Below are positions 5,770-64,000 of a DNA stretch of 64,000 nt, one piece after another (the first letter of the stretch is position 1; each line of letters opens with the position of its first letter). A model generated the notes under the pieces. That model did no database searches. It worked only from the letters and a program-made list of their open reading frames with translations, and was not told the DNA's origin. The position numbers were made by a program, and so were the translations under genes. The stretch is from Candidatus Nomurabacteria bacterium (GTDB lineage Bacteria; Patescibacteriota; Minisyncoccia; Phycocordibacterales; SBAW01): contig CALREW010000001.1 of NCBI GenBank assembly GCA_943356415.1, positions 149,252 to 213,251 of the forward strand. The letters run 5' to 3'.

Positions 5770-6618
5770 TCACCAGCGCCAGTTGATGGTGATGGCCCTG
5801 GTCTCGTGGACCTTGGCCAGCATGTAGCCAGCGAAACCGGCGACCAGGCTACCGGTCAGGAAGATGACCGTCGCCGTGGTATTGAAGCCAGGCGTGAAGC
5901 CCGTCACCTTGCCGATGGCGAGGCCGGTCAGCATGCCGAGCGCGGCTCCAGTCACCGCCGCGATGTGGGCATCCGAGACGGTGAACCAGTAGAAAGCCGT
6001 CGCAAACCGCGCAGCGAAGCGCACGATGGCCACGACAGCCGACAGCAGGTACGTCGAGTAGTGGACGACGCCCATCGGCATCCAGATCAGCAGCGCGGGG
6101 ATGCTGAAGTAGAGGAACGCCGAACCAGGAGCGACCCCGATGACATCAAACACGAAGCCGGTGCTGTAGCTCATCTTCTTCTCGAGGCGTTGGGCGCCAT
6201 ACATGGCACCGAGCGCGATGATGCCCGGCAGTCCAGCGAAGACGAAGGCACTCGTGGCCACTTCGCTGAATCCCGCTCCCACCGCGAGCGCTGCATCCAC
6301 TGGCGGAAGAGCCATGGCGGCCCAAAAGAAGAAGCCGTAGATAGCGGTGCCGCTAGCAACGAGATAGACCACAGCCACGATGACAGTGGTCCTCCTCCAG
6401 ACCGCACGGAGGTGCGCCGGATCGGTCGTCGTCGCCCACGCGTGCCGAAGACCGGCAAGGAAGGCTGCGGGGTCGCTCATGAACCACGAAACAGCGAGGC
6501 CGAGGAGCGAGCAGCAGACCAGCGACAAGCCGGTCGTGCCGAGGTACGCGTAGAAGGCGAGAAAGGTCGCCGCTCCGCCAATCGCAGAGAGAGCAACCTG
6601 ACGCTGCAGATGTGTCAC
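5770..6618 (-). CDS. Hypothetical multi-TM membrane protein in a GC-rich (about 62%) island between ftsW and murG
   Basis: Long ORF with multiple hydrophobic helices; opposite-strand ORF 5806..6744 is Arg/Asp-rich low-complexity, typical antisense artefact. Confidence 0.45.
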   Translation of the reverse strand: MTHLQRQVALSAIGGAATFLAFYAYLGTTGLSLVCCSLLGLAVSWFMSDPAAFLAGLRHAWATTTDPAHLRAVWRRTTVIVAVVYLVASGTAIYGFFFWAAMALPPVDAALAVGAGFSEVATSAFVFAGLPGIIALGAMYGAQRLEKKMSYSTGFVFDVIGVAPGSAFLYFSIPALLIWMPMGVVHYSTYLLSAVVAIVRFAARFATAFYWFTVSDAHIAAVTGAALGMLTGLAIGKVTGFTPGFNTTATVIFLTGSLVAGFAGYMLAKVHETRAITINWRW

Positions 6619-10618: not shown

Positions 10619-11119
10619 TTACGCGCTAGAAGCTGCCACCGAAGCCAGACGAGGCCGCTGGCGGATGAGAAGTTTACCCTCCACCACCTCGCCAAAGCCT
10701 GACTCGCGGTACATCTCACCCGCCGCGCCTTCCATGACATGCGCGACGATGGCGAGATGCCGCTTCGCCATGCTGTCAGCCTCGTTGACGAGGCATTCGA
10801 TCAGCGCCGCCCGGAGACGCAGCAACTCTTCGCCGTCCTTGATGGGGGCGAAGAAGAAGTTGGTGATGATCCCGGCGTTGCCGCTCAACAGGTCGAGGTG
10901 AGCGAGCGAGGCCGTCGCCACGATCCGGCCGGTCTTGCCGATCAGGCTACGACGGACCACCGCGATGCGGCAGGATGTCATGACGCGCTGGAGGCCTTCG
11001 AGGGTGACGGACACGCCACCTTTCGAGATGTGGTGGAAATCGTCGACATCAGCTTGCGTCACGCACGAAGGGTGCAGCGTATGGGCTTGGCCATAGACGA
11101 AGCCAGTGTTCTCAATCAT
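10619..11119 (-). CDS. Hypothetical protein (GC-rich island); start placed at MIENTGF, track ORF extends to 11215
   Basis: ORF in about 62% GC DNA downstream of the GNAT gene on the same strand; no recognisable motif. Confidence 0.35.
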   Translation of the reverse strand: MIENTGFVYGQAHTLHPSCVTQADVDDFHHISKGGVSVTLEGLQRVMTSCRIAVVRRSLIGKTGRIVATASLAHLDLLSGNAGIITNFFFAPIKDGEELLRLRAALIECLVNEADSMAKRHLAIVAHVMEGAAGEMYRESGFGEVVEGKLLIRQRPRLASVAASSA

Positions 11120-11283
11120 GGCTCTAACCTCACAAGTTGCCAGTTGGGGAAACAAAGCAGATATTCGAACAGGTACAATCGATAAAACCATACAATAAAC
11201 CTTATATTCCGTCAATATAACGAAAACCGCCAGGGGAGACCCCGGGCGGTTTCGCTACTCACTCGTAGCTGGTGGATGGATAT

Positions 11284-11775
11284 TCACGTGCCGCCCGGGG
11301 TCCAACGATAGGTCCGTGTGTGGCGGCGCTGCACACCCCAGCCCTGCATCGTCGAGCCTTCGTAGAAGGCCTGTGCACCCGTCTTGCTCGAAGTCCAGTC
11401 GACGTGATCGAACTTCTTCTCACGCGCGACTTGGAACAGCTTGCGCATGACACGTTTGCCAAGGCCTCGGCCTTCATGTGCGCGGAGCGTCGAGACGTCA
11501 TTGACCGTCGCGAAGCGCTTGCCGACGTACTCCGCGAGCAAATGCGGCGTCATGATGGCCATCGAGACGATGGTGCCGCCACTGTCGCGCACAACCACCC
11601 AATACGCGCCTTGCGCAAGGACCATCTCATAGTGCCAACGCAGCTGCTCGAGCGACTTCGCAGGCAAGCTTTTGTTGCCAGCCAAATGCTGCATCAAAGC
11701 GGCGATGGCCTGCACATCCTTATCCGTAAGACGCTGTCCTCCGATCAACTCAGCCTCGCTGTAGGCTTCAGCCAT
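11284..11775 (-). CDS. GNAT family N-acetyltransferase (GC-rich island)
   Basis: Acetyl-CoA binding motif RAHEGRGLGKRVMRKL and C-terminal GAQAFYEGSTMQG. Confidence 0.7.
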   Translation of the reverse strand: MAEAYSEAELIGGQRLTDKDVQAIAALMQHLAGNKSLPAKSLEQLRWHYEMVLAQGAYWVVVRDSGGTIVSMAIMTPHLLAEYVGKRFATVNDVSTLRAHEGRGLGKRVMRKLFQVAREKKFDHVDWTSSKTGAQAFYEGSTMQGWGVQRRHTRTYRWTPGGT

Positions 11776-11946: not shown

Positions 11947-12246
11947 TCACCTCTTCAGGCTGGCGATGACGTAGTTCGCCAGCGACCAGAGCGTGCCGAA
12001 ACCTGCGGCGACGGCGATGAAGGCCGACACGCCCCTGATAGGGCCAGCCGAAATACTTGCCGCGACAGCGACGCAGATGGCGCAAATCAGGCCATAGAAC
12101 GCTGCGCAGATCAGTTCCTGCGCGATATCGTTCAGTTCGTCCCACACGGGGAATCGCGGCTTACGGCGAGATGTAATGGACATTGTTCGAAGCCCTTCGC
12201 GCGAATGCCTCTGCACGAGCTTGATTGCTCTTAAGGTGCAGTGCAT
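11947..12246 (-). CDS. Hypothetical small membrane protein (99 aa, GC-rich) inside the IR-bounded cassette
   Basis: Two predicted TM helices; GC-rich codon usage. Confidence 0.35.
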   Translation of the reverse strand: MHCTLRAIKLVQRHSREGLRTMSITSRRKPRFPVWDELNDIAQELICAAFYGLICAICVAVAASISAGPIRGVSAFIAVAAGFGTLWSLANYVIASLKR

Positions 12247-17516: not shown

Positions 17517-17544
17517 ACAAAAGCCCCGTAAGGGGCTTTTGTGT
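17517..17544 (+). terminator. Intrinsic terminator after rpmA: AAAAGCCCC-gtaa-GGGGCTTTT
   Basis: Perfect stem plus T-run. Confidence 0.75.
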
Positions 17545-17547
17545 TAA

Positions 17548-17576
17548 TTGACCATTCTATTTTTCTTTTGTATAAA
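17548..17576 (+). promoter_or_regulatory. Near-consensus sigma70 promoter TTGACC-N17-TATAAA driving the GC-rich ORF at 17610
   Basis: Read directly; RBS GGGAG 7 nt before ATG. Confidence 0.55.
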
Positions 17577-17609
17577 AAGTTTGGACCGAAACACACCAGG
17601 GAGCCAACA

Positions 17610-18407
17610 ATGGCCTCGCATACTCCGTCGTTCTCCTTCGAGGGCTTGTCGGCTTCACAGCTCGCTCAGCTCGCCACGCTCATCTGCAATCGTAAAGACG
17701 CGGCGAACTTCGACGCCATCCTCAGCGAGGTTGGACGTCAGGTTGACCGCTTGGGCGGCCTTCACGACGCACTTCGTCACCTACGGCGCATGGGGAAACC
17801 TATTCCTTCCGCAACGCGCCTGCCGGTGTGGAAAAGGCTGCGACTTGGCACCCGCAGCACCTTCCTGAAATACCGCGCGGATCTCGACGTTCGAGAGTAC
17901 GGCTTCTTCGGCGGCGGGTTAGAGACGTACTACCTGTTTGAGGAACTGCGACGCTTCCGCCCTGCGCAGACGACGCATGAAGTAGACCTTGTTCGACTGT
18001 CCGCAAAGGACCTCGGCTTCATCGGACCGGTGAGCCACACCGACGTCTACGCCATCGCCAGCAAAATGGGACTGGAGCTCTGCACGCCAGAGGTCGGGCC
18101 CGCATTGCGTCGCGTCTACCGGAACCAACCGGTCGGCGAAACGCTCTACGTCGGCATGGAAGCGATCGAAAGACACCGCGCAAGCACGGCGCGTCAGGCT
18201 GATCTCCCACGGAAGTTCGGCTTCGCACTTCACCGCGAGTCGAACTTCAAGGATTACCGCCGGACGCACATGCGGCGGATGAAAAAAGCGCTCCTACTCA
18301 AACCGATCGAGTACGAGCGCTACCCTGAAGAGCCTGGGAATCTACGCTCCCACCCTCTGGTGCAGGGCAACTGGTTCTACGTGTTCGTCCGGCCTCGGCC
18401 GAAATAA
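17610..18407 (+). CDS. Hypothetical protein (GC-rich island, about 60% GC)
   Basis: ATG with GGGAG RBS; GC-rich hairpin (GAGGCCTGCA-tttcgg-TGCAGGCCTC) after stop. Confidence 0.45.
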   Translation: MASHTPSFSFEGLSASQLAQLATLICNRKDAANFDAILSEVGRQVDRLGGLHDALRHLRRMGKPIPSATRLPVWKRLRLGTRSTFLKYRADLDVREYGFFGGGLETYYLFEELRRFRPAQTTHEVDLVRLSAKDLGFIGPVSHTDVYAIASKMGLELCTPEVGPALRRVYRNQPVGETLYVGMEAIERHRASTARQADLPRKFGFALHRESNFKDYRRTHMRRMKKALLLKPIEYERYPEEPGNLRSHPLVQGNWFYVFVRPRPK

Positions 18408-27707: not shown

Positions 27708-27808
27708 GCCGATATCATACCGCGACCCGTAGATGCACCCGACTTGCCATCTTGGATAAATGTTGTGTAGGCTCGAAGTGGATCCCGAAACAACCTGACG
27801 GTGATGTG

Positions 27809-28264
27809 ATGAATCGAGAGATGCTCTACGCGTTTGCGGCCATGCTCCTGAGCGCGCCGCTTCTCATGGCCGTTCCGTTCTTCGAGTACAAGTACGGGAC
27901 GCCCAAAGCCGTGACGACGCTCTCCTGGTTCGCCGGAGAGATTGGCGTCATCGCCATCGTCGCGGTCGCGACGGGCCAGTTGAAGCCCCTGGCGGGCTAC
28001 ACCGGCAACCCTGGCATGTGGCTCGCACTTGTCGGCGGAGCTGTCATCGGAACCGGAGCGCTCTTCTGCATGATGAAGGCATTCGGCGGGGACGAACCGG
28101 CTGCTATCGTCATGACCATCGCAAACGCCAACCCGGCTGTCGCGGTGTTGGGGCTCATGTTCCTCGGCCTCGTCGTCAAGGACTTCCCCACCGGAATCAG
28201 CGACAAGCAGACCTTCGGGGTCTTCCTGTCGATACCGGTCTTCTACCTCCTCGCCTCGAAGTAG
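27809..28264 (+). CDS. Hypothetical 4-TM membrane protein (GC-rich island); start placed at MNREMLY
   Basis: GC about 63%; GGTGA RBS; followed by terminator. Confidence 0.4.
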   Translation: MNREMLYAFAAMLLSAPLLMAVPFFEYKYGTPKAVTTLSWFAGEIGVIAIVAVATGQLKPLAGYTGNPGMWLALVGGAVIGTGALFCMMKAFGGDEPAAIVMTIANANPAVAVLGLMFLGLVVKDFPTGISDKQTFGVFLSIPVFYLLASK

Positions 28265-29686: not shown

Positions 29687-30094
29687 ATGAAACCGAAAAA
29701 AGGCAAGCCCGAGCTTAGGCTCGCGGCGTGCGACGGCAAGTCGCTCGAACGCGGAACCATCCTGGTTCCGAAGAACCTCACGTCCTTTCTTCAACAAGGC
29801 GTGGACCCCATGGTCTTCACGACCATCAACGACTTCGACGACCAGTCGAACGGGGTGTTCTTCGCTACGTTGGGACGGAAGTTCCCGACGTTGCGCTTCA
29901 TGCTGCCGAACATCGAGTGCCCGAACCTCATCATGGCGTTCAGGTACTGCTGTCATCCCAACAACGCGCTGCGTCTCTCTCGTACGCTGCGTGAGCTGGG
30001 CTACCCGGTGATGCTCGTCCACATGACGCCGAGCAGTGTTCCGGAACAGACAGCGCGCATGTTCGCGCCCAATCGGATGAGGATCCGAGCCTGA
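29687..30094 (+). CDS. Hypothetical protein (GC-rich island)
   Basis: GGGGAG RBS, ATG; about 62% GC; terminator hairpin CGCGGCGGCC-tcct-GGCCGCCGCG after stop. Confidence 0.4.
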   Translation: MKPKKGKPELRLAACDGKSLERGTILVPKNLTSFLQQGVDPMVFTTINDFDDQSNGVFFATLGRKFPTLRFMLPNIECPNLIMAFRYCCHPNNALRLSRTLRELGYPVMLVHMTPSSVPEQTARMFAPNRMRIRA

Positions 30095-33399: not shown

Positions 33400-33759
33400 A
33401 TGCACACGTTCACTCAGCTCTTTTCGTGGCTCTCGACTCTTCCCGGCATGATCGCCGCGATGATCGTCGGGTTCGCAATTCAAATGGCCCCGTTCAGCGC
33501 AGGCCTCGTCGTCTACAAGTGGTCGGTGTTCGGATTCCTGATCCTGCCGCTCATCACCGGCCTGATCTATCCGGCCAGCATCGCCCTCGGCGTTGCGGTC
33601 AGATGGAACCGGCTCGGCGCGAGCGGCCGCTCGCTCCAATGGGAGAAGATCTCTCCGTGGATTAGCGGTTATGGCGCGCCGATGTCAGTGACCCTGACGG
33701 CGCTCTGCATCCTGTGCACGATCTTCATCGGCGCCGGCGCTAACGTCAAGATGATGTAG
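33400..33759 (+). CDS. Hypothetical small membrane protein (GC-rich island, about 62% GC)
   Basis: 3-4 TM helices; driven by consensus promoter; followed by terminator. Confidence 0.45.
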   Translation: MHTFTQLFSWLSTLPGMIAAMIVGFAIQMAPFSAGLVVYKWSVFGFLILPLITGLIYPASIALGVAVRWNRLGASGRSLQWEKISPWISGYGAPMSVTLTALCILCTIFIGAGANVKMM

Positions 33760-35355: not shown

Positions 35356-35468
35356 TTACAAACGACATTTACCTTTCATTGAAAAACAAACCAGTCGACT
35401 CTCTTTTTAAATAGGTGTACCCTCTCCCATGGAGCCGGTTCGGCTCGAACAACGCAGGAGACACCTTC

Positions 35469-35939
35469 ATGCGGCTGCGCATCGCATATATGGGTACCAT
35501 CGGCGAAGTGCCGAGGGGTGAACCCGACCCGTTCCAGCTTCTCGCTCGGGGCGGCAAGCACTTCGGCCTTATCGCCCCCGACGACGAGCTCCTCGAAGGC
35601 AAGCCTCCGGAGGCGCGCCTCTTCATCTGGAAGTCGGCCTCGATCCTGAGCCGCGTCATGGAAGCGAAGTACGACCTCAACAAGATCGCTGAGGCACTTG
35701 CGGCAGAAGGACACGCAAGCGCCGTGGTCCTGAAGCGGCTTGCTGCCGAAACGACCGCGGCCGCACCTGCTGGCAACATCCACCTCGTGTGGGCTTTGCC
35801 GCCCGGCATGCCGGAGCGCACTGCAGAGGGCCAGAGCGGCCTCATGGACACGATCTACTGCCCCATGTTCAGCGGTCGCTTCACCTTCAGCGACACCCTG
35901 GAGACCACGATCGAACTTCTCGGGGCTCCACGCGCCTGA
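35469..35939 (+). CDS. Hypothetical protein (GC-rich island); start placed at MRLRIAY with AGGAGA RBS
   Basis: About 64% GC; terminator follows. Confidence 0.4.
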   Translation: MRLRIAYMGTIGEVPRGEPDPFQLLARGGKHFGLIAPDDELLEGKPPEARLFIWKSASILSRVMEAKYDLNKIAEALAAEGHASAVVLKRLAAETTAAAPAGNIHLVWALPPGMPERTAEGQSGLMDTIYCPMFSGRFTFSDTLETTIELLGAPRA

Positions 35940-35955
35940 TTGCGGCGACATACGG

Positions 35956-35991
35956 CGAACGTCCGGGCTTAGGCCCGGACGTTTTGCGTTT
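35956..35991 (+). terminator. Hairpin AACGTCCGGGC-ttag-GCCCGGACGTT plus TTGCGTTT
   Basis: Read directly; shares CGTTTTGCGTTT tail with other GC-island terminators. Confidence 0.6.
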
Positions 35992-35997
35992 CATACT

Positions 35998-53329: not shown

Positions 53330-54019
53330 CTAATGCGCCTTTGTGCGAAATACCTTCCCCGCTTTTGGATATATGGTAACAAGTGGGTCCTTTGAGGTGT
53401 CGTAGGCTCGTGCCGGAGCAATGCGACGCCCGTAGTAGATGACGCGGTGGGTAAAATGTGGCCATTCTTTCTTTGGGAGCATCTGCATCAAGTCTCGCTC
53501 GATGCGAACTGCATCTTTGTAGTCAGAGAGATCGAAGCGGTGCACAAAACGTATGACATGCGTGTCTACCGTGATACCACCGCTTTCACCATACAGGTCG
53601 CCGAGGATAACGTTGGCCGTCTTACGACCCACGCCAGGTATTTTTATCATCTCCGGAAGCGTGGTCGGCAGCTTCCCCTTCAAATTATTCTTTACGTATT
53701 TTGCTGCAGCAAGAATGTTGCGCGTCTTTGCATTTGCAAAAGTGACTGAGCGTATAAGTTTTGAAAATTCTGCCGGATCAGCCACGCAATAGTCGTTGAG
53801 TGTTTTATAGCGTTTAAAAAGCGCCGGAGTCACCCGGTTTACCATTTTATCCGTGCACTGAGCAGACAACTGTACTGCAACCATAAACTGCCATGGCGTT
53901 TTATAGACCAATTCGGTTATGGCTTCAGGGAACAGTTTCTTTAGAGCCTTATCAAGCTTCAAAATACGAGCCTTTCGCTCGGCTAACTTTTTGCCCGTCA
54001 TGGCTAGCTTGCTGGGCAT
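53330..54019 (-). CDS. nth: Endonuclease III; start placed at MPSKLAMTGKK, as the track ORF extension to 54826 is antisense of the GC-rich gene
   Basis: HhH-GPD motif and C-terminal 4Fe-4S Cys cluster region. Confidence 0.8.
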   Translation of the reverse strand: MPSKLAMTGKKLAERKARILKLDKALKKLFPEAITELVYKTPWQFMVAVQLSAQCTDKMVNRVTPALFKRYKTLNDYCVADPAEFSKLIRSVTFANAKTRNILAAAKYVKNNLKGKLPTTLPEMIKIPGVGRKTANVILGDLYGESGGITVDTHVIRFVHRFDLSDYKDAVRIERDLMQMLPKKEWPHFTHRVIYYGRRIAPARAYDTSKDPLVTIYPKAGKVFRTKAH

Positions 54020-54157: not shown

Positions 54158-54817
54158 TTGACCAAGACCGCCCCGTTCACTGCCCGTCTCCACGCTGCCA
54201 TGGCTGCTGACGGTTCCACTATCCGCCCGCCCGAGCTGGGCGCCGGCATCAAGACCAAAGGCTACCGCGCCTACGGCATCGTCCCGCACAACCTGCGCGG
54301 CCTGACGGCTTTCCACCATGAGACCCGCACGGCCGTCAACGGCATGCTGGACGAGGCCATGCGCATCAGCGCGGACTGCCTGAAGGGCAACTGCGCCTGC
54401 AAGGCCGGCACCTTCGATGTGGTGAAGTTCGCCGACGAGCTCGCGCTCCTGACCGGCGACCTGACCAAGATCGATGGCATCCTGCTCCCCGAGCTGGCGC
54501 CTGCGCTCAACGGCCTCGATCTGAACTTCACCCAGTACGTCATCGGCGACGACTGGTCCATCAAGGCCCCGGCCGACGCCATGCGCAAGCAGAACCCGCT
54601 CGCGATGTTCAGCGAGATGCTGTTCGGCGATGCTGCTGGTCGATCGCCCTTCGGTCGCGGTCGTCGCGAGCGCAACGACGACATGATGGTCGAGGTCATC
54701 GAAATCGGCGGCATGCGCGGTGGTGGCTCGCCCTTCGGTGGCGCCACCACGCTCCGCGATCTGCTCGGCCGTCTCCGCGGCAGCCGGCGTCACGATCAGT
54801 ACGCCGGCTCGGCGTAG
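54158..54817 (+). CDS. Hypothetical protein (GC-rich island, about 66% GC), TTG start with AAAGGA RBS
   Basis: ORF with Gly/Arg-rich C-terminus; followed by terminator. Confidence 0.4.
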   Translation: MTKTAPFTARLHAAMAADGSTIRPPELGAGIKTKGYRAYGIVPHNLRGLTAFHHETRTAVNGMLDEAMRISADCLKGNCACKAGTFDVVKFADELALLTGDLTKIDGILLPELAPALNGLDLNFTQYVIGDDWSIKAPADAMRKQNPLAMFSEMLFGDAAGRSPFGRGRRERNDDMMVEVIEIGGMRGGGSPFGGATTLRDLLGRLRGSRRHDQYAGSA

Positions 54818-56758: not shown

Positions 56759-57145
56759 TTAGCGGCCCTTTCGGAGATCCGCCAAACTCTCCTCTACCTG
56801 CTCCTTGTGGTAGAGGATGAAGTCCTTGAAGGCGGTTTGGCCGCCCCGCTTGAATTGTTCTTCTCCGTGTAAGACGAAGTTGAGGGCCAAGACGATCACG
56901 TCGAGATCGCGTTGTTCACCCTTCCAGCCGCACAGGTGCTGGTTGTCCTCGTTTTCCGCCATGCACAGCAGCTGACGTTTGAGCGTGAGTAGTTTCGCTC
57001 GCGTCATGTCGACAGTGAACAGGTCAAGCGCCTTGCGTTGCTTGACCCACCCCTGCTCTTCCGCGGTAGTCGTCTGCGCCTGGCCGGAAGCGACCAGAAA
57101 CAGTAGTGCAGCCACAACCAAAGTCGCGGCACGCATTGGGTTCAT
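56759..57145 (-). CDS. Hypothetical secreted protein (GC-rich island)
   Basis: Signal peptide MNPMRAATLVVAALLFLVASGQA; GGGAGG RBS. Confidence 0.4.
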   Translation of the reverse strand: MNPMRAATLVVAALLFLVASGQAQTTTAEEQGWVKQRKALDLFTVDMTRAKLLTLKRQLLCMAENEDNQHLCGWKGEQRDLDVIVLALNFVLHGEEQFKRGGQTAFKDFILYHKEQVEESLADLRKGR

Positions 57146-57267: not shown

Positions 57268-58281
57268 CTACCTCTTAGCAATAATGGAGCGCTTATACGT
57301 ATCGAGGTGCTCGAGAGCGATGCCAGTCCCCTTCGCTACACAATAGAGCGGATCTTGAGCAAGTTCAGCGCGTACGCCGGTGCGGCGCAAAACAAGTTCA
57401 GGAAAATTGCGCAACTGACTCGTGCCACCCGTCATGATGATGCCATAGTCGATGATATCGGCCGCAAGCTCTGGCGGCGTCTCTTGCAGAACATCGCGAA
57501 TCGCTTTGATTATCTCGCGCAATTCACGACCAATTGCTTTTACTATTTCGTTGGTGCGGATTTCAGTCTGACGTGGAAGCCCGGTGATAAAGTCGCGTCC
57601 TTTAATGATCATCGCGAGCTCTTCTTCAACCGGCACCGCGGAACCAACCTGTATTTTTATTTGCTCTGCCGTCTTGTCTCCAATCGCAAGGTTAAAGGTC
57701 TTCTTTATATAGTCAGCGATAGCGTGATCAAGCCTATCGCCCGCACACTTCACCGACGTTGAGGCGACGATGCCGCCGAGAGAAATCACTGCGACGTCAG
57801 TGGTTCCTCCACCTATGTCGACAATCATATGTCCGCGTGGTTCTTGGATGGGAATACCTGCGCCGATAGCGGCAAGCACCGGTTCTTTAACCACATACGC
57901 GTTTCGCGCACCCCCCTTTATCGCCGCCTCAACAACTGCGCGGCGCTCAGTTGATGTAACACCTGCCGGCACCGATACCATTACTTCAGGTTTAAAGAAT
58001 GAGAAGCGTCCCATCGCTTTGCCGATAAAGTAACGCAGCATCGCCTGCGTCACGCGATAGTCCGCGATAACCCCGTCGCGCATCGGCCGATACGCGATAA
58101 TCTCGTCCGGCGTGCGGCCGATCATTTCCTTTGCTTCAAAGCCAACCGCAAGAATGCGCTTATCTATTTCTGAAATAGCGACAACTGAAGGTTCGTTGAG
58201 GATGACACCTTTACCGGGTACGAATACGAGTGTATTTGCAGTGCCTAAGTCGATTCCGAGTTTTGGAGAGAAAAACGACAT
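57268..58281 (-). CDS. mbl: Second MreB paralog (Mbl/MreBH-like)
   Basis: Full-length MreB-like with all actin-fold motifs. Confidence 0.85.
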   Translation of the reverse strand: MSFFSPKLGIDLGTANTLVFVPGKGVILNEPSVVAISEIDKRILAVGFEAKEMIGRTPDEIIAYRPMRDGVIADYRVTQAMLRYFIGKAMGRFSFFKPEVMVSVPAGVTSTERRAVVEAAIKGGARNAYVVKEPVLAAIGAGIPIQEPRGHMIVDIGGGTTDVAVISLGGIVASTSVKCAGDRLDHAIADYIKKTFNLAIGDKTAEQIKIQVGSAVPVEEELAMIIKGRDFITGLPRQTEIRTNEIVKAIGRELREIIKAIRDVLQETPPELAADIIDYGIIMTGGTSQLRNFPELVLRRTGVRAELAQDPLYCVAKGTGIALEHLDTYKRSIIAKR

Positions 58282-58320
58282 ATCGGAGACATCATACAGG
58301 ATTTACTACGAAGCTGAGAA

Positions 58321-60030
58321 TTAGACCTCTTCGGGCCTGTATTTTACCGCGCGCACTTCTTCTTCCTTTGGACTTTGGTACGCGACCGTAAAATCAAGTT
58401 TCCCATCTCTTTCGACTACAGAAACACTCGCTGTTCCAGCAACATCGTTTGGGGCTATGACCATTATGCCCAAGCTATCACGCATACGTTCTGCAATACC
58501 TCCTGCTTGGCCCGTTGAACATGAATCAAGAATCAATGTCGCGTCTTTTGAAAAAAAGTCTTTGGCGCGCCTATGTCCAGGCCCTGCTAAATGTTCACTG
58601 GTAAGTGAACCAAATTGCGAAAACTCAATGTTGTCTGGCGCTCCGTGCCCACCGAGGATTGCAAAATCTATTTTGTGCTCATACGCCTTACCGAGATGCA
58701 GTAAGTGGCGCGCAACATCGCGCGACGAAGCAACTTCAAATATTTTGACGCCGTGATGGGCTTTCACGCTCTCAAACAATGCTTTAAATTCGGTTCTTTC
58801 ATTGTCAAAAGCAGCAATTTCTTCAGCGTTGTCAGCATATGGAAACATGATGACCCCGTAAGGGCGATCTACCTTTTCTTCTTGCAGCTGTGAAAGCAGC
58901 ATTTCTTCCGGATATCGGTAGAACTCACGTATTCCGTAATCCTTAAAGAGGCGTTTGACCGAACCTGGCGTAGATTTTTCAAGGGAACTACACGCCTCAA
59001 AAAATTTATACAGTGCGATTTCTTTATATCCTTTAGGATTTCTGTTTAGGTCAAACATTTCGCGCAACGATACGCCGTACGTTTGTGCAAAGGTTTCGCC
59101 GTACTTCTCGAATCCATATTCGGCTGCCTTCGGTCCCGACAGAAGCAAGTGTTGAAATAGAAGTGAGTCAGAAATGCCGCCAAGCGATTCAACAAATTGT
59201 GTCCTGGTTTTGTCTTTTTCTGGCAGTGCAAACAAGAAGCGCGTCACGCCATGACCCTCCTCTACTATTCTCTGAGCTGCATCATGATCCATCGAGGGAA
59301 CGATTTGCTGAAGTGCAGAGAGAATCTTTGTTTCTCGACCCTTAGGCAAGGGCATGTGCTCAAACGCAGGTTCCGCAAGCAGTCGATCGATAAGTTTGAC
59401 GTACGTCCATCGCACTTTCTCTGCATCATCTTCAGACTTCCCAAGAGTCGACAGTGACTCCATATTTTCAAAGACGGCACCGGCAAGCGCTGCGCGTAAC
59501 TGAGGTAATCGTTTGGTCGCCAACAGTGACCTGTAGAGGTTCGAGAGTTTTGGAATCAAAACGTTATGATCCTCTGCGCGCTTCAATGCATACGAAAGAT
59601 TGCCGAGATGTATGGCTTTTGCCAACTCCTCGTCTTTTGGAGACTCCGCAAATGTCATCTGCGCCGCACCTTCAACGTGAAGTACTTCTACTCCCTGTCT
59701 AAAGAGACGGTCCATTGGTCCATACACGGTTTCTTGAAGAAGTGTTTCTTCATCTCGAGGTGCCACAATTTCTTTTTGTGCAAGCAACTCAGTCGCTCCT
59801 TCGCGCAACGTATCCTTCGCAGCTGCAATGTCCTGCTCACGTCTCTCGGCACGCGCCGGTACAAAAAAGCGTTTCGCCGCATGCAACACTCCCTTCTCTT
59901 CGCGCGTCAGTGCGTCGCGTTCTCGACGTCCAGCACGCAACTGTGCTGCCCACTGATCGCGGTGCTCCTGTACTCGTGGATCAACGAGGCCGGGTTTCTT
60001 TGGCCCGCGGTTTGGACCTTCCATATTCAT
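58321..60030 (-). CDS. Uncharacterized 569-aa protein with C-terminal caspase-like (clan CD; CHAT/C11-like) His-Cys dyad domain
   Basis: Hydrophobic strand plus GGHG, then about 40 aa later TLILDSCSTG (His and Cys after beta-strands). Confidence 0.5.
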   Translation of the reverse strand: MNMEGPNRGPKKPGLVDPRVQEHRDQWAAQLRAGRRERDALTREEKGVLHAAKRFFVPARAERREQDIAAAKDTLREGATELLAQKEIVAPRDEETLLQETVYGPMDRLFRQGVEVLHVEGAAQMTFAESPKDEELAKAIHLGNLSYALKRAEDHNVLIPKLSNLYRSLLATKRLPQLRAALAGAVFENMESLSTLGKSEDDAEKVRWTYVKLIDRLLAEPAFEHMPLPKGRETKILSALQQIVPSMDHDAAQRIVEEGHGVTRFLFALPEKDKTRTQFVESLGGISDSLLFQHLLLSGPKAAEYGFEKYGETFAQTYGVSLREMFDLNRNPKGYKEIALYKFFEACSSLEKSTPGSVKRLFKDYGIREFYRYPEEMLLSQLQEEKVDRPYGVIMFPYADNAEEIAAFDNERTEFKALFESVKAHHGVKIFEVASSRDVARHLLHLGKAYEHKIDFAILGGHGAPDNIEFSQFGSLTSEHLAGPGHRRAKDFFSKDATLILDSCSTGQAGGIAERMRDSLGIMVIAPNDVAGTASVSVVERDGKLDFTVAYQSPKEEEVRAVKYRPEEV

Positions 60031-60188
60031 ATAAGGATTCTACCTTGCCGTACCGAGGAGTCACTTGTACCCACAGTAACCCTTTTAGGACTGAAAATGA
60101 AAAATAGATTCTCTGTAGGTTTTCCAAAAGAAAAGCCCCCGCCTTGCAGCGGGGACTTCACCACCAGGCCGGAGCCTGGATTTAGATA

Positions 60189-61034
60189 TCAGTTGCGGAG
60201 CGTGGTCCGCAGGTCCTCCATGTGGGCCAGATAGCCCCTCAGCAGAGCGTCGCCCTGCTGGCCGCGACCGGCGTCCTCGTGACGACGGTCGGCAAACTGG
60301 AGGGTCTCCGGCCGCGTGCCGAGCTTCTTGGCCGCATCCTGCAGGACGACCTTGGCGGCGCCCATGGCGTCCCACTTGGCGCCTTCCGTGCCGTCCTTCG
60401 CGAGGTAGGCCGCATGCCAGAGAGCCTGGCTCGAGCGCAGCCCGAGAACGGCGGTGCGGATGCCGTCCTTGTCGTCGAGGTAGGCCTGGGTCGCGGTGAT
60501 GCGCCGGTCGAGATGCGCCATGAAGCGCGCACGCTCGTCGGAGTTCATCTCGCGCACCGTCTTGATGACGGTGAGCTTGTGCTTGTCGTAGAAGGCCTTG
60601 AGGCCCTCGGGCGTCGACAGCACGGATTTGCCCAACGCCAGGGTGACCTTGCGCCAGTTGTAGATGGCCTCGGAGTCCTCCTTCGTGATCCGCGCCTCCT
60701 CGAGGTCGTAGGAGCGCGAGAAGGTGAAGGACGCGTAGAGGACATTGTAGAACTGTCGGTCCTCGTTGACGGCCAGCAGCGGCTGCAGTTGGTCGCGGTA
60801 GAACGCCTGCCGCTCCATGCCACCGCGATCCTCGTAGACCCGCTGGTCCACCGAGGCCATCACCATGCTCGCCACCGTCTTGTTGGTGACGAAGCTGAGG
60901 GCGACACTCGTGGCGACCTGGTCGGTGACGGCCTTGATCTTGGCGCTGATCGTCGGCGACTGCGCGACCACCACGCTGGTGGCCGCCAGAGTCATCAGCG
61001 CTGCGCCAACGATGGCGCGACCGATATTGTTCAT
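60189..61034 (-). CDS. Hypothetical secreted protein (GC-rich island); start placed at MNNIGRA
   Basis: Signal peptide; GGGAG RBS; alternative long ORFs on both strands are Arg/Gly-rich artefacts. Confidence 0.4.
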   Translation of the reverse strand: MNNIGRAIVGAALMTLAATSVVVAQSPTISAKIKAVTDQVATSVALSFVTNKTVASMVMASVDQRVYEDRGGMERQAFYRDQLQPLLAVNEDRQFYNVLYASFTFSRSYDLEEARITKEDSEAIYNWRKVTLALGKSVLSTPEGLKAFYDKHKLTVIKTVREMNSDERARFMAHLDRRITATQAYLDDKDGIRTAVLGLRSSQALWHAAYLAKDGTEGAKWDAMGAAKVVLQDAAKKLGTRPETLQFADRRHEDAGRGQQGDALLRGYLAHMEDLRTTLRN

Positions 61035-61109
61035 AGACTTTTGCTCCCGCCGGCAGTGCCGGTCTTCTAGACATGGAAGTGCCAAACAACAACTCATAGC
61101 ACCTGTAAC

Positions 61110-61139
61110 ATTATACTATACTTATAGTAATATTGTCAA
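61110..61139 (-). promoter_or_regulatory. Consensus sigma70 promoter TTGACA-N18-TATAAT (minus strand) driving the GC-rich ORF 60189..61034
   Basis: Exact consensus hexamers. Confidence 0.65.
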
Positions 61140-61188
61140 TAGCCTCCAAACCTTCTGGTTAAGGCCTGTATGGGCTACGCTGGTGGGT

Positions 61189-62499
61189 ATGCAGCCAACC
61201 CTCAATTTCCGCGTTAAAGGCGGGCGCAAACTTACCGGTGAAATAACCGTTAATTCTTCAAAGAATGGCGCAGTGGGCCTTTTGTGCGCAAGCCTTCTAA
61301 ACCGCGGTACGACCGTACTCAAAAACATGCCTCGCATAGAGGAAGTACACCGCATCATCGAGGTTTTGCGTTCCATCGGTGTTGAGGCAACGTGGAATGA
61401 CCATACACTCACATTGGTACCCCCAAAAACGTTTTCGATGCAAAAAATGGATATTGAGGCTGCCGAAAAAACACGGAGCATCTTGATGTTTGTCGGCTCG
61501 CTTATCCATTCCCTGCCTTCAATGCGCATACCGCAAGCAGGTGGATGCAAGCTTGGCAGCCGCACTGTGCGTCCACATAAGTACGCACTTAAACAATTCG
61601 GTGTTGTTATCGCCTCCGGTGGAGATGCGTGGAAAGTCTCGCACACGAAACTGCATGCTGCAGATATTCTTATGTATGAGTCCGGCGACACCGCGACCAT
61701 CAACGCCATACTTGCAGCTGCAGGCATCGCAGGTCAAAGCACTATCAAATACGCATCAGCAAACTACCAGGTGCAAGATGTTTGCCAGTACCTCGTGAGC
61801 CTCGGCGTAAAGATAGATGGCATTGGTACGACGACGCTTACGATTCGTGGCAAGGCGGGTATAAAGAAAAACGTATCGTTCGAATTGTCAGAGGACCCGA
61901 CCGACGCTATGTTTTTCCTTGCCGCTGCGATAGTCACCCGCTCATCGATTGTCATCAAACGCATTCCCATAGATTTCCTTGAACTCGAGCTCTACAAGCT
62001 CGAGTTGATGGGTTTTACCTACGACGTGCTACGCAAGTACAAAGGTCGCAATGGGTACGTGAATCTTGTCGATATTCGCACACATGCATCATCCCTTGTT
62101 GGGTCGCCTGAAAAAATCTACGGACGCCCCTATCCGGGACTTAATATCGACAACCTTCCGTTCTTTGCAGTTATCGCAACACAGGCAAAAGGCACAACGC
62201 TTATCCATGACTGGGCCTATGAAGGCCGCGCGCTCTATTTCACCGAGATGAACAAACTTGGCGCCAAAGCCATGCTTGCTGATCCTCACCGCGTGTTTGT
62301 TGAAGGAAAAACTCCACTTAAAGCCGCGGATCTCACGTGCCCGCCAGCACTTCGTCCCGCCGCCATACTTCTTATTGCCATGCTTGCTGCAAAAGGCATT
62401 TCGACGCTCCGCAATATTTACAGCATCAATCGTGGGTATGAAGGTCTCGCGGAGAAACTCCAATCGCTGGGCGCTTCAGTAGAGGTATTTGAGGGGTGA
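61189..62499 (+). CDS. murA: UDP-N-acetylglucosamine 1-carboxyvinyltransferase; start placed at MQPTLNF
   Basis: Full-length MurA-like incl. KLTGEI, catalytic Cys region. Confidence 0.9.
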   Translation: MQPTLNFRVKGGRKLTGEITVNSSKNGAVGLLCASLLNRGTTVLKNMPRIEEVHRIIEVLRSIGVEATWNDHTLTLVPPKTFSMQKMDIEAAEKTRSILMFVGSLIHSLPSMRIPQAGGCKLGSRTVRPHKYALKQFGVVIASGGDAWKVSHTKLHAADILMYESGDTATINAILAAAGIAGQSTIKYASANYQVQDVCQYLVSLGVKIDGIGTTTLTIRGKAGIKKNVSFELSEDPTDAMFFLAAAIVTRSSIVIKRIPIDFLELELYKLELMGFTYDVLRKYKGRNGYVNLVDIRTHASSLVGSPEKIYGRPYPGLNIDNLPFFAVIATQAKGTTLIHDWAYEGRALYFTEMNKLGAKAMLADPHRVFVEGKTPLKAADLTCPPALRPAAILLIAMLAAKGISTLRNIYSINRGYEGLAEKLQSLGASVEVFEG

Positions 62500-62547
62500 C
62501 GCAGACGAAGATGAAGATACAGAGGACTTCCTGTACTGCCGATATAT

Positions 62548-62576
62548 TTGACATTATATTTTATTTATAGTATAGT
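62548..62576 (+). promoter_or_regulatory. Near-consensus promoter TTGACA-N17-TATAGT
   Basis: Read directly; RBS AAGGGGG before ATG 62624. Confidence 0.6.
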
Positions 62577-62623
62577 TAGTTCGACACCGTCCTTTTTTAA
62601 TTCGCGCAACAAGGGGGCATCCT

Positions 62624-63097
62624 ATGCGCACGCGAAACGTAAATATCCTGGCCTGGGGGCTTGGTCTGATCGTGGGTGGCATCGTCCTCTACGCCGGACT
62701 CGCGGGCTTCGGCTTCTTCGATGGGAGCTGGGCGCCAAGCCGAGCGTCGGCTAACAAGAACCCCATCGACGAGGTTTACCACCTCGTCGTCGCACAGCAA
62801 TTGCCGCCGGGCCCTGGGCCAAACACGACCCGCATCGTCAGCGCCAGCGGGACGTACGTACTTGGTGCTACGGCACCCAATACGTTCAGCGTCTCGCGTG
62901 AGGGGTCACCGAGGCTCGGTGTCGTGATGCAGAAGCTGGGCGACGTCTGGAATTCGACCAGCGTTACCGGTTTTGAAACCACGCTGAACCGGGATTCCGG
63001 GCGAGCGCGTATCCTCGACCCGCAGAAGCTGCAGGATTTCATCAACACGGCAATCAACGCCGCGTTGGCCTGCAGTCACAGGAAGAACATGTGCTGA
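62624..63097 (+). CDS. Hypothetical secreted protein (GC-rich), paralog of 63267..63791
   Basis: N-terminal TM/signal; C-terminus FINTAINAALACSHRKNMC similar to FLMKAFDAARSCGYNKTQC. Confidence 0.4.
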   Translation: MRTRNVNILAWGLGLIVGGIVLYAGLAGFGFFDGSWAPSRASANKNPIDEVYHLVVAQQLPPGPGPNTTRIVSASGTYVLGATAPNTFSVSREGSPRLGVVMQKLGDVWNSTSVTGFETTLNRDSGRARILDPQKLQDFINTAINAALACSHRKNMC

Positions 63098-63146
63098 CCT
63101 CGGTCACCACGCAGCGAGCGCCCCTCACCGGGCGCTCGTTTTGCGT
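63095..63146 (+). terminator. Terminator hairpin GAGCGCCC-ctcacc-GGGCGCTC plus GTTTTGCGT; copy 1 of a near-identical repeat
   Basis: Almost identical to 63789..63842. Confidence 0.6.
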
Positions 63147-63182
63147 CTGGCTACGGCAATTTTGAAAGTAGAAAGAGCGTAA

Positions 63183-63212
63183 TTGACAGATAGTACTTTT
63201 TCGTATCATAAT
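63183..63212 (+). promoter_or_regulatory. Near-consensus promoter TTGACA-N17-TCATAAT
   Basis: Read directly. Confidence 0.55.
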
Positions 63213-63266
63213 ACTTACGTACGCTCGTTGAGTTCCCTTTCCTCAGTTCAATCCTGGAGACACGCC

Positions 63267-63791
63267 ATGTCGTGGTTTATCCGCCTCTTCGTCCCAGTCC
63301 TTCTCCTTCTCGCGCTCGGCGCGTGCGACAACGGCAACAAGAAGGCCAAATCCCCGCCTCCCCCGGCACCGACGGAGCTCGACCTGGCAGCCAACCAGGT
63401 CCTGGACCTCTTCCTCTCGGGCAAGCTGCCCATGGGGAATGATGCCTTCGGCGCCCCTGCGGCCGTCTTCGGCAAGCACACGGTGCCGGCGGTGCCCTCG
63501 ATTAACGCGCCGGCGTACACCATGGAGTACACCATCACGATGGACTCCATCGATAAGTGGACGAGCCTGAAGATCGCTGTCCGCTACAGCAATGGCGCGG
63601 GCAGCTACGTCGGCATCTCTCGGCTTAACACCGAGACGAAGTGGGCCATCAATGGTGTCGGCAACATGCCGTGGACATCCGGGGCCAACTGGAACGAGCC
63701 GGGCAGCGTGGACTATCCACGCTACAAAGAATTCCTGATGAAGGCCTTCGACGCCGCCCGCTCCTGCGGCTACAACAAGACCCAGTGCTGA
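63267..63791 (+). CDS. Hypothetical lipoprotein (GC-rich), lipobox LLALGAC
   Basis: Signal peptide with LALGAC, Pro-rich linker; paralogous C-terminus. Confidence 0.45.
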   Translation: MSWFIRLFVPVLLLLALGACDNGNKKAKSPPPPAPTELDLAANQVLDLFLSGKLPMGNDAFGAPAAVFGKHTVPAVPSINAPAYTMEYTITMDSIDKWTSLKIAVRYSNGAGSYVGISRLNTETKWAINGVGNMPWTSGANWNEPGSVDYPRYKEFLMKAFDAARSCGYNKTQC

Positions 63792-63842
63792 CCTCGGTCA
63801 CCACGCAGCGGGCGCCCCTCACCGGGCGCTCGTTTTGCGTTT
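63789..63842 (+). terminator. Copy 2 of the conserved 3' end plus terminator repeat
   Basis: One mismatch versus 63095..63146. Confidence 0.6.
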
Positions 63843-63892
63843 AGATATGCACCGTTCGACAAACATGGCTGTATTCGTATAATGTGGCGGCT

Positions 63893-64000
63893 ATGGGTAT
63901 CTTTTCCCGCAAAAACATCCTCCTTATCGGGGCTCTCGTGGTTTTCACCGTCGGCGCTTTTACGCTGGTAAAACTCTACGAGCTTGGGTACCGCTTTACG
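63893..64000 (+). CDS. 5' fragment of a CDS continuing beyond the window (MGIFSRKNILLIGALVVF...)
   Basis: Open frame from ATG to window edge with N-terminal TM. Confidence 0.25.
   Translation, partial: MGIFSRKNILLIGALVVFTVGAFTLVKLYELGYRFT

Follow-up and report, generated by a model that had tools for sequence, protein, structure and literature searches.

The DNA analysed here is a 64-kb stretch (hereafter the window) from a Candidatus Nomurabacteria bacterium (contig CALREW010000001.1). Near its end, two small genes, which we term A and B, follow each other on the plus strand between murA and a native gene, C, which starts at 63895 and extends beyond the end of the window. Related loci and proteins are denoted by L and P numbers, respectively. 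Both open reading frames (ORFs) were confirmed as described in the initial annotation of this DNA, and so was the near-consensus promoter assigned to each, since A and B are both preceded by sites that match 11 of the 12 positions of the sigma-70 consensus (Table 1). The promoters and 5' untranslated regions (5'UTRs) of the two genes are unrelated to each other. At the other end, both genes close with the same 3' module, in which a first hairpin encloses the final Cys and stop codons and a second, GC-rich hairpin is followed by a T-tract. The genes also stand out by their foreign composition, with a G+C content at third codon positions (GC3) of 0.77 in A, 0.86 in B and 0.91 in gene X on the other flank of murA, versus 0.42 in murA itself.

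Table 1. Positions of the A and B cassettes, their signals and other compositionally deviant elements in the window
Feature	Position	Strand	Description
Gene A	62624-63097	+	ORF of 157 amino acids (aa); glycine-rich hydrophobic N-terminal anchor (residues 8-32), orphan body, C-terminal helix ending C150-x6-C157-stop
Gene B	63267-63791	+	ORF of 174 aa; predicted lipoprotein precursor, lipobox LALGA/C20 (cleavage before C20), end C167-x6-C174-stop
Cassette A	62504-63164	+	661 bp: promoter, ribosome-binding site (RBS), ORF A and copy 1 of the 3' module; absent from L005/L006 and L087
Promoter-like site of A	62548-62576	+	TTGACA-17-TATAGT, 11/12 to the sigma-70 consensus
RBS of A, GGGGG	62613-62617	+	6 nt 5' of the ATG (sequence reading)
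Hairpin 1, copy 1	63091-63110	+	GTGCTGACC-TC-GGTCACCAC; Cys codon 63092-63094 and TGA 63095-63097 inside
Hairpin 2, copy 1	63113-63146	+	GC-rich 11-bp stem, 6-nt loop, then TTTTGCGT; terminator-like
Promoter-like site of B	63183-63212	+	TTGACA-18-CATAAT, 11/12; promoter and 5'UTR conserved in L005 and L087
Hairpin 1, copy 2	63785-63804	+	encloses the Cys-stop codons of B
Hairpin 2, copy 2, with T-tract	63807-63840	+	intrinsic-terminator-like; stem 63807-63834, 11 pairs
Promoter-like site of native gene C	63856-63883	+	TCGACA-16-TATAAT
Six sigma-70 sites of at least 11/12	33336(+), 54051(+), 61139(-), 62548(+), 63183(+), 63856(+)		consensus scan of the window
GC3-rich small ORFs	5770-6618, 10619-11215, 11284-11775, 11947-12246, 56759-57145, 60189-61034	-	
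GC3-rich small ORFs	17541-18407, 27752-28264, 29687-30094, 33400-33759, 35415-35939, 54158-54817	+	

Comparison of the two 3' ends revealed a repeat of exactly 56 nt (63091-63146 and 63785-63840), of which 55 are identical. Its first base is the third position of the penultimate amino-acid codon, and it further includes the terminal Cys codon, the TGA and both hairpins, so the identity of the final Cys, stop and about 55 bp of hairpin terminator that had been noted earlier, apart from one base, stands with its extent refined to 56 nt. The sole mismatch (A at 63117, G at 63811) keeps the RNA pairing by turning an A-U into a G.U pair. The tract has two copies in the window and none in shuffled sequences, and folding of the two modules gave z scores of -3.6 and -4.0. 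The DNA identity drops from 98% to ~56% (35/63 nt) exactly at the foot of hairpin 1, and downstream of the TGA the A and B sequences part after 49 nt. The terminator of the B copy was called by a scan, with 11 pairs, 8 of which are G-C, a 6-nt loop and the tail TTGCGTTTAG. The A copy has the same stem with a weaker T-tract (TTTTGCGTCT) of only 4-5 U, and was missed by the simple terminator scan. As predicted elements, they possess the GC-rich stem-loop and the U-rich tract that define intrinsic terminators.

The two-hairpin 3' architecture is a trait conserved across the members of the B family. All five known 3' ends (A, B and those of L005, L087 and L088) have TGC-TGA-CC, a loop of 2-4 nt and GGTCA(C/G)CA(C/G)GC, followed by a second GC-rich hairpin and a U-tract. 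Coding constrains the 5' arm of hairpin 1, and the simplest reason for the conservation of the 3' arm is therefore selection on the hairpin as such; in L088, a G-C pair at the base is swapped to C-G and a C.C mismatch is repaired. The hairpin-2 sequences of the distant members vary with the pairing retained. A and B, unlike L087 and L088, share their hairpin-2 sequence, which indicates that the two modules have a recent common origin, either by copying together with cassette A or by gene conversion. The loop after the TGA is TC in both copies in the window and TCTC in L005, and this 2-nt indel shows that the sequence past the TGA is non-coding. It is also compatible with an exchange between the A and B copies after the strains had split, the polarity of the indel being uncertain. 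Insertion of selenocysteine at the UGA via a selenocysteine insertion sequence, or another stop read-through, was rejected, because the loop indel shifts the frame and the downstream sequence is not conserved.

The similarity of the two C-termini, which the initial annotation had pointed out, extends beyond the repeat. With A and B aligned in the register that the repeat sets, their last 25 residues (final Cys excluded) have an ungapped BLOSUM62 score of 39, which was not reached at any of 7448 other offsets or in any of 20000 composition draws. Consistently, the 35 identical bases among the 63 upstream of the repeat compare with 18.5 +/- 3.5 under an in-frame null. Alignment of the B-family profile with A by hhalign was restricted to the last 28 columns, with an E of 0.0028, and the B-family hidden Markov model (HMM) gave a weak, gap-free alignment over the final 60 residues of A (8.6 bits). 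Significant similarity thus covers the last 25-28 residues, some resemblance perhaps reaching 60, and the outcome that was to refute the initial annotation, a repetition of the terminator only, was not what we found. Whole-protein BLASTP of A against B gave an E of 0.16, and there is no detectable similarity outside the C-terminus. The possibility that A is a frameshifted B-family gene was also tried and rejected, as the family HMM matches A only in its own frame.

These comparisons bear on an alternative to which we give a minor though appreciable chance, namely that A and B are unrelated genes which share only a copied 56-nt terminator module, and that the C-terminal resemblance is convergent or fortuitous. 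Such a module could resemble a repetitive extragenic palindromic (REP) element or a miniature inverted-repeat transposable element, or could have been copied during insertion. The abrupt step in identity at the foot of hairpin 1 and the lack of similarity in the other ~100 residues are what it predicts, and the terminator of another GC-rich cassette has an identical CGTTTTGCGTTT tail. It accounts poorly, however, for a similarity upstream of the identical tract that is significant in a fixed register, and for the fact that the shared residues include invariants of the B family (A163, A164, C167 and C174, B numbering). Moreover, the module takes in the conserved Cys codon and the stop codon, its architecture is kept in members with a different hairpin-2 sequence, and only two copies of it were found in the 64 kb, with none in the further collections that were searched. 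An exact search with the terminator gave no match in JGI metagenome contigs and viral contigs, nor in the other loci and collections searched. A degenerate hairpin 1 (TGCTGACC-N2-6-GGTCASCASGC) had at least 120 metagenome and at least 10 viral matches; all those listed are chance matches within GC-rich coding DNA, and none of them ends a family-like ORF. One of these chance matches, at ~3058 of L110 (Ga0196981_1000059), lies at the end of a 100-aa ORF with a signal-peptide-like N-terminus, which ends ...C-x9-C-stop inside the hairpin; CGCAGCG follows the hairpin as in the window, there is no obvious terminator, and the resemblance is probably coincidental.

The product of B is predicted to be a lipoprotein. 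Its N-terminus reads MSWFIR-LFVPVLLLLALGA-C20, with an Arg at position 6, and satisfies a lipobox rule of the PROSITE PS51257 type (K/R in the first seven residues, a hydrophobic stretch, [LIVMFWSTAG]2-[LIVMFYSTAGCQ]-[AGS]-C, and the Cys at position 15-35) with LALGA-C20. The Cys and the lipobox are invariant in the relatives P0001, P0005 and P0006. Searches of Pfam, NCBIfam, PHROGs, PADLOC and PDB sequences gave no family match for A or B, the weak NCBIfam matches of B being confined to lipoprotein signal peptides. In a word-indexed search of 5.8 billion proteins, B found one relative, with an identity of 91% (P0001), and A found only itself. A full-sensitivity HMMER scan of 1.84 billion representatives with B as the query added two more real relatives, P0005 (44%) and P0006 (34%); the fourth match, P0007, is a 13-fold repeat protein and was discarded as spurious. 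Besides the word index, A was searched against plasmids, phages and viral contigs, where it had no relatives. The real family members are lipoproteins of 161-175 aa with an invariant A-A-x-x-C-x5/6-C at the extreme C-terminus. Altogether, B appears to represent a new and very rare family of putative lipoproteins, which counts three clusters in a set of 5.8 billion proteins. No candidate for Lgt or LspA was found in the 64-kb window, in which the ORFs 5770-6618 and 27752-28264 encode proteins with several transmembrane (TM) segments and have no such Pfam matches. In L088 (21-695 and 1414-1899), the gene of P0005 occupies another locus. It converges there on an HhH-GPD glycosylase gene, which shares 74% identity with window 53345-54001, and lies ~0.7 kb from a low-GC gene of a Y1 (IS200-like, PF01797) transposase.

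Protein A would be anchored differently. Its N-terminus has Arg at positions 2 and 4, followed by the 25-residue glycine-rich hydrophobic segment, and the sole A-x-A site (A41-S-A43) lies 11 residues beyond it, where a cleaved Sec signal peptide would have a hydrophobic region of 7-15 residues and such a site 5-7 residues further on. This end looks more like an uncleaved membrane (signal) anchor than a classical signal peptide. Of the signal peptides that had been assigned to both proteins, that of B is upheld in the form of a lipoprotein lipobox, and for A a membrane anchor appears more likely. The C-terminus of A, ...INAALACSHRKNMC-stop, carries the A-A-x-x-C-x6-C form of the family signature F-x-A-A-x-x-C-x5/6-C-stop, with Ile replacing the Phe, and has the Cys-stop within a hairpin and the terminator hairpin next to it, as in the B family. 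By contrast, the family core is missing, for A has a predicted TM anchor in place of the lipobox and lacks the GKL of GKLPMG, K154, M158 and F161, and Trp (W126) alone may align. Hence a C-terminal module seems to be common to A and the B family, homology of the rest of A being unproven. In AlphaFold models, both proteins show a common layout of an N-terminal hydrophobic segment, a helix, about four strands and a C-terminal helix; as both models are of low confidence, a shared fold is not established. Neither protein has a class III signal of type IV pilins (G|F/M-T-L-x-E).

As an orphan that has a low-confidence structure model and is confined to a single lineage, A might be a spurious or decaying ORF in imported GC-rich DNA. 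We regard this as very improbable, since the GC3 periodicity of A lies in the correct frame (0.77, versus 0.57 and 0.51 at the first and second positions) and the ORF has an 11/12 promoter and a properly spaced GGGGG RBS, along with a clean membrane segment at the N-terminus and an in-frame family C-terminal motif that ends at the shared stop. In addition, its sequence is identical in several samples.

The gene order around A and B was compared with that of related loci. The order murA-A-B-C, with an identical A sequence, is also found in independent assemblies from several samples and assemblers (L001-L004 and L219), which rules out an assembly artefact. In L005/L006, a conspecific strain that comes from a different study, the order is murA-B-C without A, and the flanking genes are 96.7-98.6% identical to the window at the nucleotide level. 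In its murA-B spacer, positions 1230-1252 of L005 correspond to window 62481-62503, and positions 1255-1365 to window 63165-63272. In the more distant L087 (identities of 82% for MurA, 67% for C, 65% for D, 76% for Def and 79% for Fmt), a B-family gene (P0006) directly follows murA, and its promoter and 5'UTR align with those of B. Because murA and B are adjacent in both the sister strain and this outgroup, the 661-bp cassette A is most parsimoniously a recent gain in the lineage of the window. In still more distant Paceibacteria (L029, L036, L056, L069 and others) the C homologue directly follows murA, so that B itself would be an older insertion, which has held its site downstream of murA since before the split from the L087 lineage. 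The genome was placed in Patescibacteria/Paceibacteria by MurA, whose best match is a Candidatus Adlerbacteria genome (74% identity); MurA was used instead of the 276-aa downstream gene, which has no relative in GTDB representative genomes.

The recent tandem duplication proposed in the initial annotation did not survive this comparison. The adjacency of A and B on the same strand, their similar size and layout (the latter from low-confidence models) and the near-identical 3' end would all fit a duplication of the whole gene followed by divergence. Nevertheless, the bodies are unalignable whereas the 3' 56 nt are 98% identical, a pattern that uniform divergence cannot give, and two tandem paralogues should be homologous along most of their length, which A and B are not. 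Moreover, the promoters and 5'UTRs are unrelated, A has no relatives in the searches and is missing from the sister strain and the outgroup, and the missing unit (62504-63164) differs from the 694-bp period of the repeat. This reading is already contradicted by the data, and we consider it highly unlikely. The other event proposed at the time, gene conversion, fared better, as near-identity limited to the 56-nt module supports recent copying or conversion of that module and of nothing more. Recombination between the two repeats was also discarded as the cause of the presence or absence of A, since the 661-bp indel does not equal the 694-bp period and such recombination would delete B.

The B genes of the window and L005 differ by 20 synonymous and 16 non-synonymous changes, with a ratio of non-synonymous to synonymous rates (dN/dS) of 0.22, indicating that B is a real gene under purifying selection. 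Selection on it is more relaxed than on its neighbours, for which the same comparison gave 0.05 (murA), 0.10 (C) and 0.07 (D). Over the longer distance to L087, the B homologue P0006 is ~32% identical and the neighbouring genes are 65-82% identical, and the B family thus appears to diverge several-fold faster than the genes around it. The earlier suggestion of a diversifying surface family is therefore plausible with respect to the divergence from L087 (B at ~32%, neighbours at 65-82%), although the short-term ratio speaks for purifying selection.

The foreign composition and the strong promoters are linked across the window. The B-family genes have a GC3 of 0.79-0.89 in genomes whose other genes span 0.36-0.79. 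About a dozen more small ORFs with a GC3 of 0.70-0.91 are scattered in the window (Table 1), where housekeeping genes are near 0.42. Nearly all of them lack a Pfam match, the single exception being a GNAT acetyltransferase; several encode multi-TM or signal-peptide proteins, and strong hairpin-plus-T terminators follow most of them. A consensus scan found six sigma-70 sites of at least 11/12 in the window, compared to 0.48 expected and a maximum of 3 in 100 simulations. Five of the six immediately precede orphan ORFs with a high GC3 (33400-33759, 54158-54817, X, A and B), and the remaining one is the promoter of C, just past the B cassette. Housekeeping genes in the window lack such near-perfect promoters. 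The -10 element of the C promoter ends 11 nt 5' of the ATG (63895), from which the C mRNA would be leaderless or nearly so.

Taken together, we propose, as the explanation that is probably right, that A and B are moron-like autonomous cassettes which were inserted serially downstream of murA and encode fast-evolving surface proteins, and that their 3' module was recently copied or converted. The two would have entered, one after the other, the spacer downstream of murA in a chromosome of Paceibacteria (Adlerbacteria-like), which belong to the candidate phyla radiation (CPR). In each cassette, a small GC3-rich ORF would be preceded by a strong sigma-70-type promoter and an RBS and closed by a two-hairpin 3' end, with transcription predicted to start at the promoter-like site and to stop after hairpin 2. 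Hairpin 1 would sequester the Cys and stop codons; with its ~20 nt over the stop codon, it probably spaces the terminator from the terminating ribosome, stabilises the 3' end, or both. Hairpin 2 with its U-tract would end transcription and insulate each unit, making each cassette an independent transcription unit. The B product would be a rare, fast-diverging lipoprotein, lipid-anchored and extracytoplasmic, and the A product an extracytoplasmic protein held by a TM helix and gained in the lineage of this strain only. All that A would have in common with the B family is the C-terminal module, in which an amphipathic helix leads to a C-x6-C-COOH end that may form a disulfide loop. The two copies would then be nearly identical because one was recently copied from the other or converted by it, in either direction. 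Tethered on the cell surface, the two proteins might be fast-evolving factors for interaction with a host, a partner cell or phages, which is the role that their surface location, strain variability and fast divergence make most likely.

Several observations weigh against this proposal. A, for which the searches gave no homologue, might be a gene that is young or in decay; the hhalign probability of its match to the B family is only 11%, and the family HMM scores it at only 8.6 bits. The AlphaFold models of the two proteins have pLDDT values of 53 and 46.5, the T-tract of the A terminator copy is weak, and neither repeats nor a recombinase were seen at the borders of cassette A.

The arrangement resembles morons, a concept of Hendrix and Juhala, the products of which are often membrane proteins or lipoproteins. 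Phage morons carry their own promoter and a factor-independent terminator, are inserted between genes that are adjacent in relatives, deviate in composition and have insertion hot spots at which different cassettes occur (PMC2920897). Likewise, the A and B cassettes lie between genes adjacent in relatives (murA and C for B, murA and B for A), with their own predicted promoter and terminator and a GC3 of 0.77 and 0.86 against 0.42. However, they differ from phage morons in that their neighbours are chromosomal housekeeping genes (mreB, murA, def and fmt), that no phage proteins were detected (no PHROG matches), that the host is a CPR bacterium, and that the two cassettes share a family-specific 3' module. 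We therefore regard the locus as moron-like accessory cassettes with concerted evolution of the 3' module, a new variation on a known arrangement.

Four other systems were compared. In the pilE/pilS genes of Neisseria, a variable body is joined to a conserved 3' segment that holds the Cys codons of the C-terminal disulfide loop and the Sma/Cla repeat, and gene conversion acts between copies. A and B similarly have a conserved 3' end with Cys codons and a non-coding repeat beside variable bodies. They differ in that there are two copies, both with promoters, with no promoterless silent copies in the window, no G-quadruplex or recombination machinery identified at A and B, and no class III signal. 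The vsp, vlp and vsa families of Mycoplasma and those of Borrelia keep the 5' end (promoter and signal peptide) conserved, and their variation is driven by internal repeats or site-specific inversion. A and B share with them the tandem genes of membrane-tethered proteins in a host-associated bacterium with a reduced genome, a partly conserved gene with a fast-diverging body and a strain-variable content, whereas it is the 3' end that is conserved here, with neither internal repeats nor an invertase. Like integron cassettes, A and B consist of a short ORF with an imperfect inverted repeat from the ORF end, added serially at one site; unlike them, they carry their own promoters and the cassette border lies outside the hairpin. 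Neither the module nor the cassette borders (62503/62504 and 63164/63165) contain an attC-type GTTRRRY, and no intI or integrase gene was found among the neighbours tested. With REP elements, bacterial interspersed mosaic elements and Correia-type elements, they have in common a near-identical hairpin-forming sequence at the 3' ends of different genes, but the repeat was found just twice in the 64 kb, extends into coding bases (Cys and stop) and is tied to a single protein family.

The likeness to these recombining systems raises the question of whether the 3' module, possibly together with the promoter and 5'UTR, is a site for swapping or capturing surface-protein cassettes, which would make the region downstream of murA an active diversification locus. 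Among the window, L005 and L087, the promoter, 5'UTR and 3' hairpins are indeed better conserved than the coding body. Cassettes were also added one after another at the same place, and one B homologue lies near a Y1 (IS200-like) transposase gene. The high GC3 of the family (0.79-0.89) whatever the genome background also fits frequent recombination or repeated import. Nevertheless, we judge this explanation improbable: no recombinase or integrase gene is found among the neighbours tested and no silent donor copy in the window, the borders of the A indel fall away from the repeat, reading of the sequence revealed no GTTRRRY core, and the conservation of hairpin 1 can be explained by the coding constraint on its 5' arm and by pairing. 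Moreover, the known sequences number only five.

Also doubtful, if slightly less so, is a broader version of the proposal of moron-like cassettes, in which the combination of promoter, GC-rich ORF, stop-codon hairpin and terminator would be a portable "chromosomal moron" format in this Paceibacteria group. It would be exchanged, for example by natural transformation, between strains of very different base composition, with the 3' module as a homology or recombination handle by which bodies of surface proteins are exchanged or added at hot spots such as the murA flanks. If true, such a format with its handle would be a so far undescribed mechanism of surface diversification in CPR bacteria.

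CPR bacteria (Patescibacteria) are thought to live attached to other cells, and small unannotated CPR surface proteins are prime candidates for partner recognition. To our knowledge, almost nothing has been reported on the origin and turnover of their genes. The locus offers a clean and datable case in which one strain has acquired, at a hot spot, a cassette that would express a surface protein by itself, and it ties near-perfect promoters to orphan genes of foreign composition. Were the pattern genome-wide, it would show reduced genomes acquiring and immediately expressing new surface functions; otherwise, it would be an ordinary insertion of accessory genes with a copied terminator.

The neighbours of the locus include mreB, murA, DinB, the delta' subunit of Pol III, an HhH-GPD glycosylase, def and fmt. 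In relatives, mreB and murA are adjacent and divergent, whereas in the window (57268-61188) a 569-aa orphan gene (58321-60030) and X lie between them. A homologue of the 569-aa gene (46% identical) is found in L087 (1352-3061) between the B-like gene and C, with a GC3 of 0.53 in a genome of GC3 0.7-0.8. As this gene is located between mreB and murA here and elsewhere in L087, both flanks of murA look like hot spots of rearrangement or insertion. The murA gene of L087 (1-624) has a GC3 of 0.79, compared to 0.42 in the window (61876-62496), at 82% amino-acid identity. Gene X (60189-61034, minus strand) encodes a secreted 281-aa orphan, with a 12/12 promoter at 61139-61110 and a terminator at 60159-60132. 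In the X region of L219 (3034-3882), the public annotation has instead a 282-aa ORF that overlaps X on the other strand and has probably been called on the wrong one. Finally, the terminator of the GC-rich ORF 35415-35939 (~35950-35995) has the layout and tail of the A and B terminators (ACG...stem...CGTTTTGCGTTT), with a different stem sequence.

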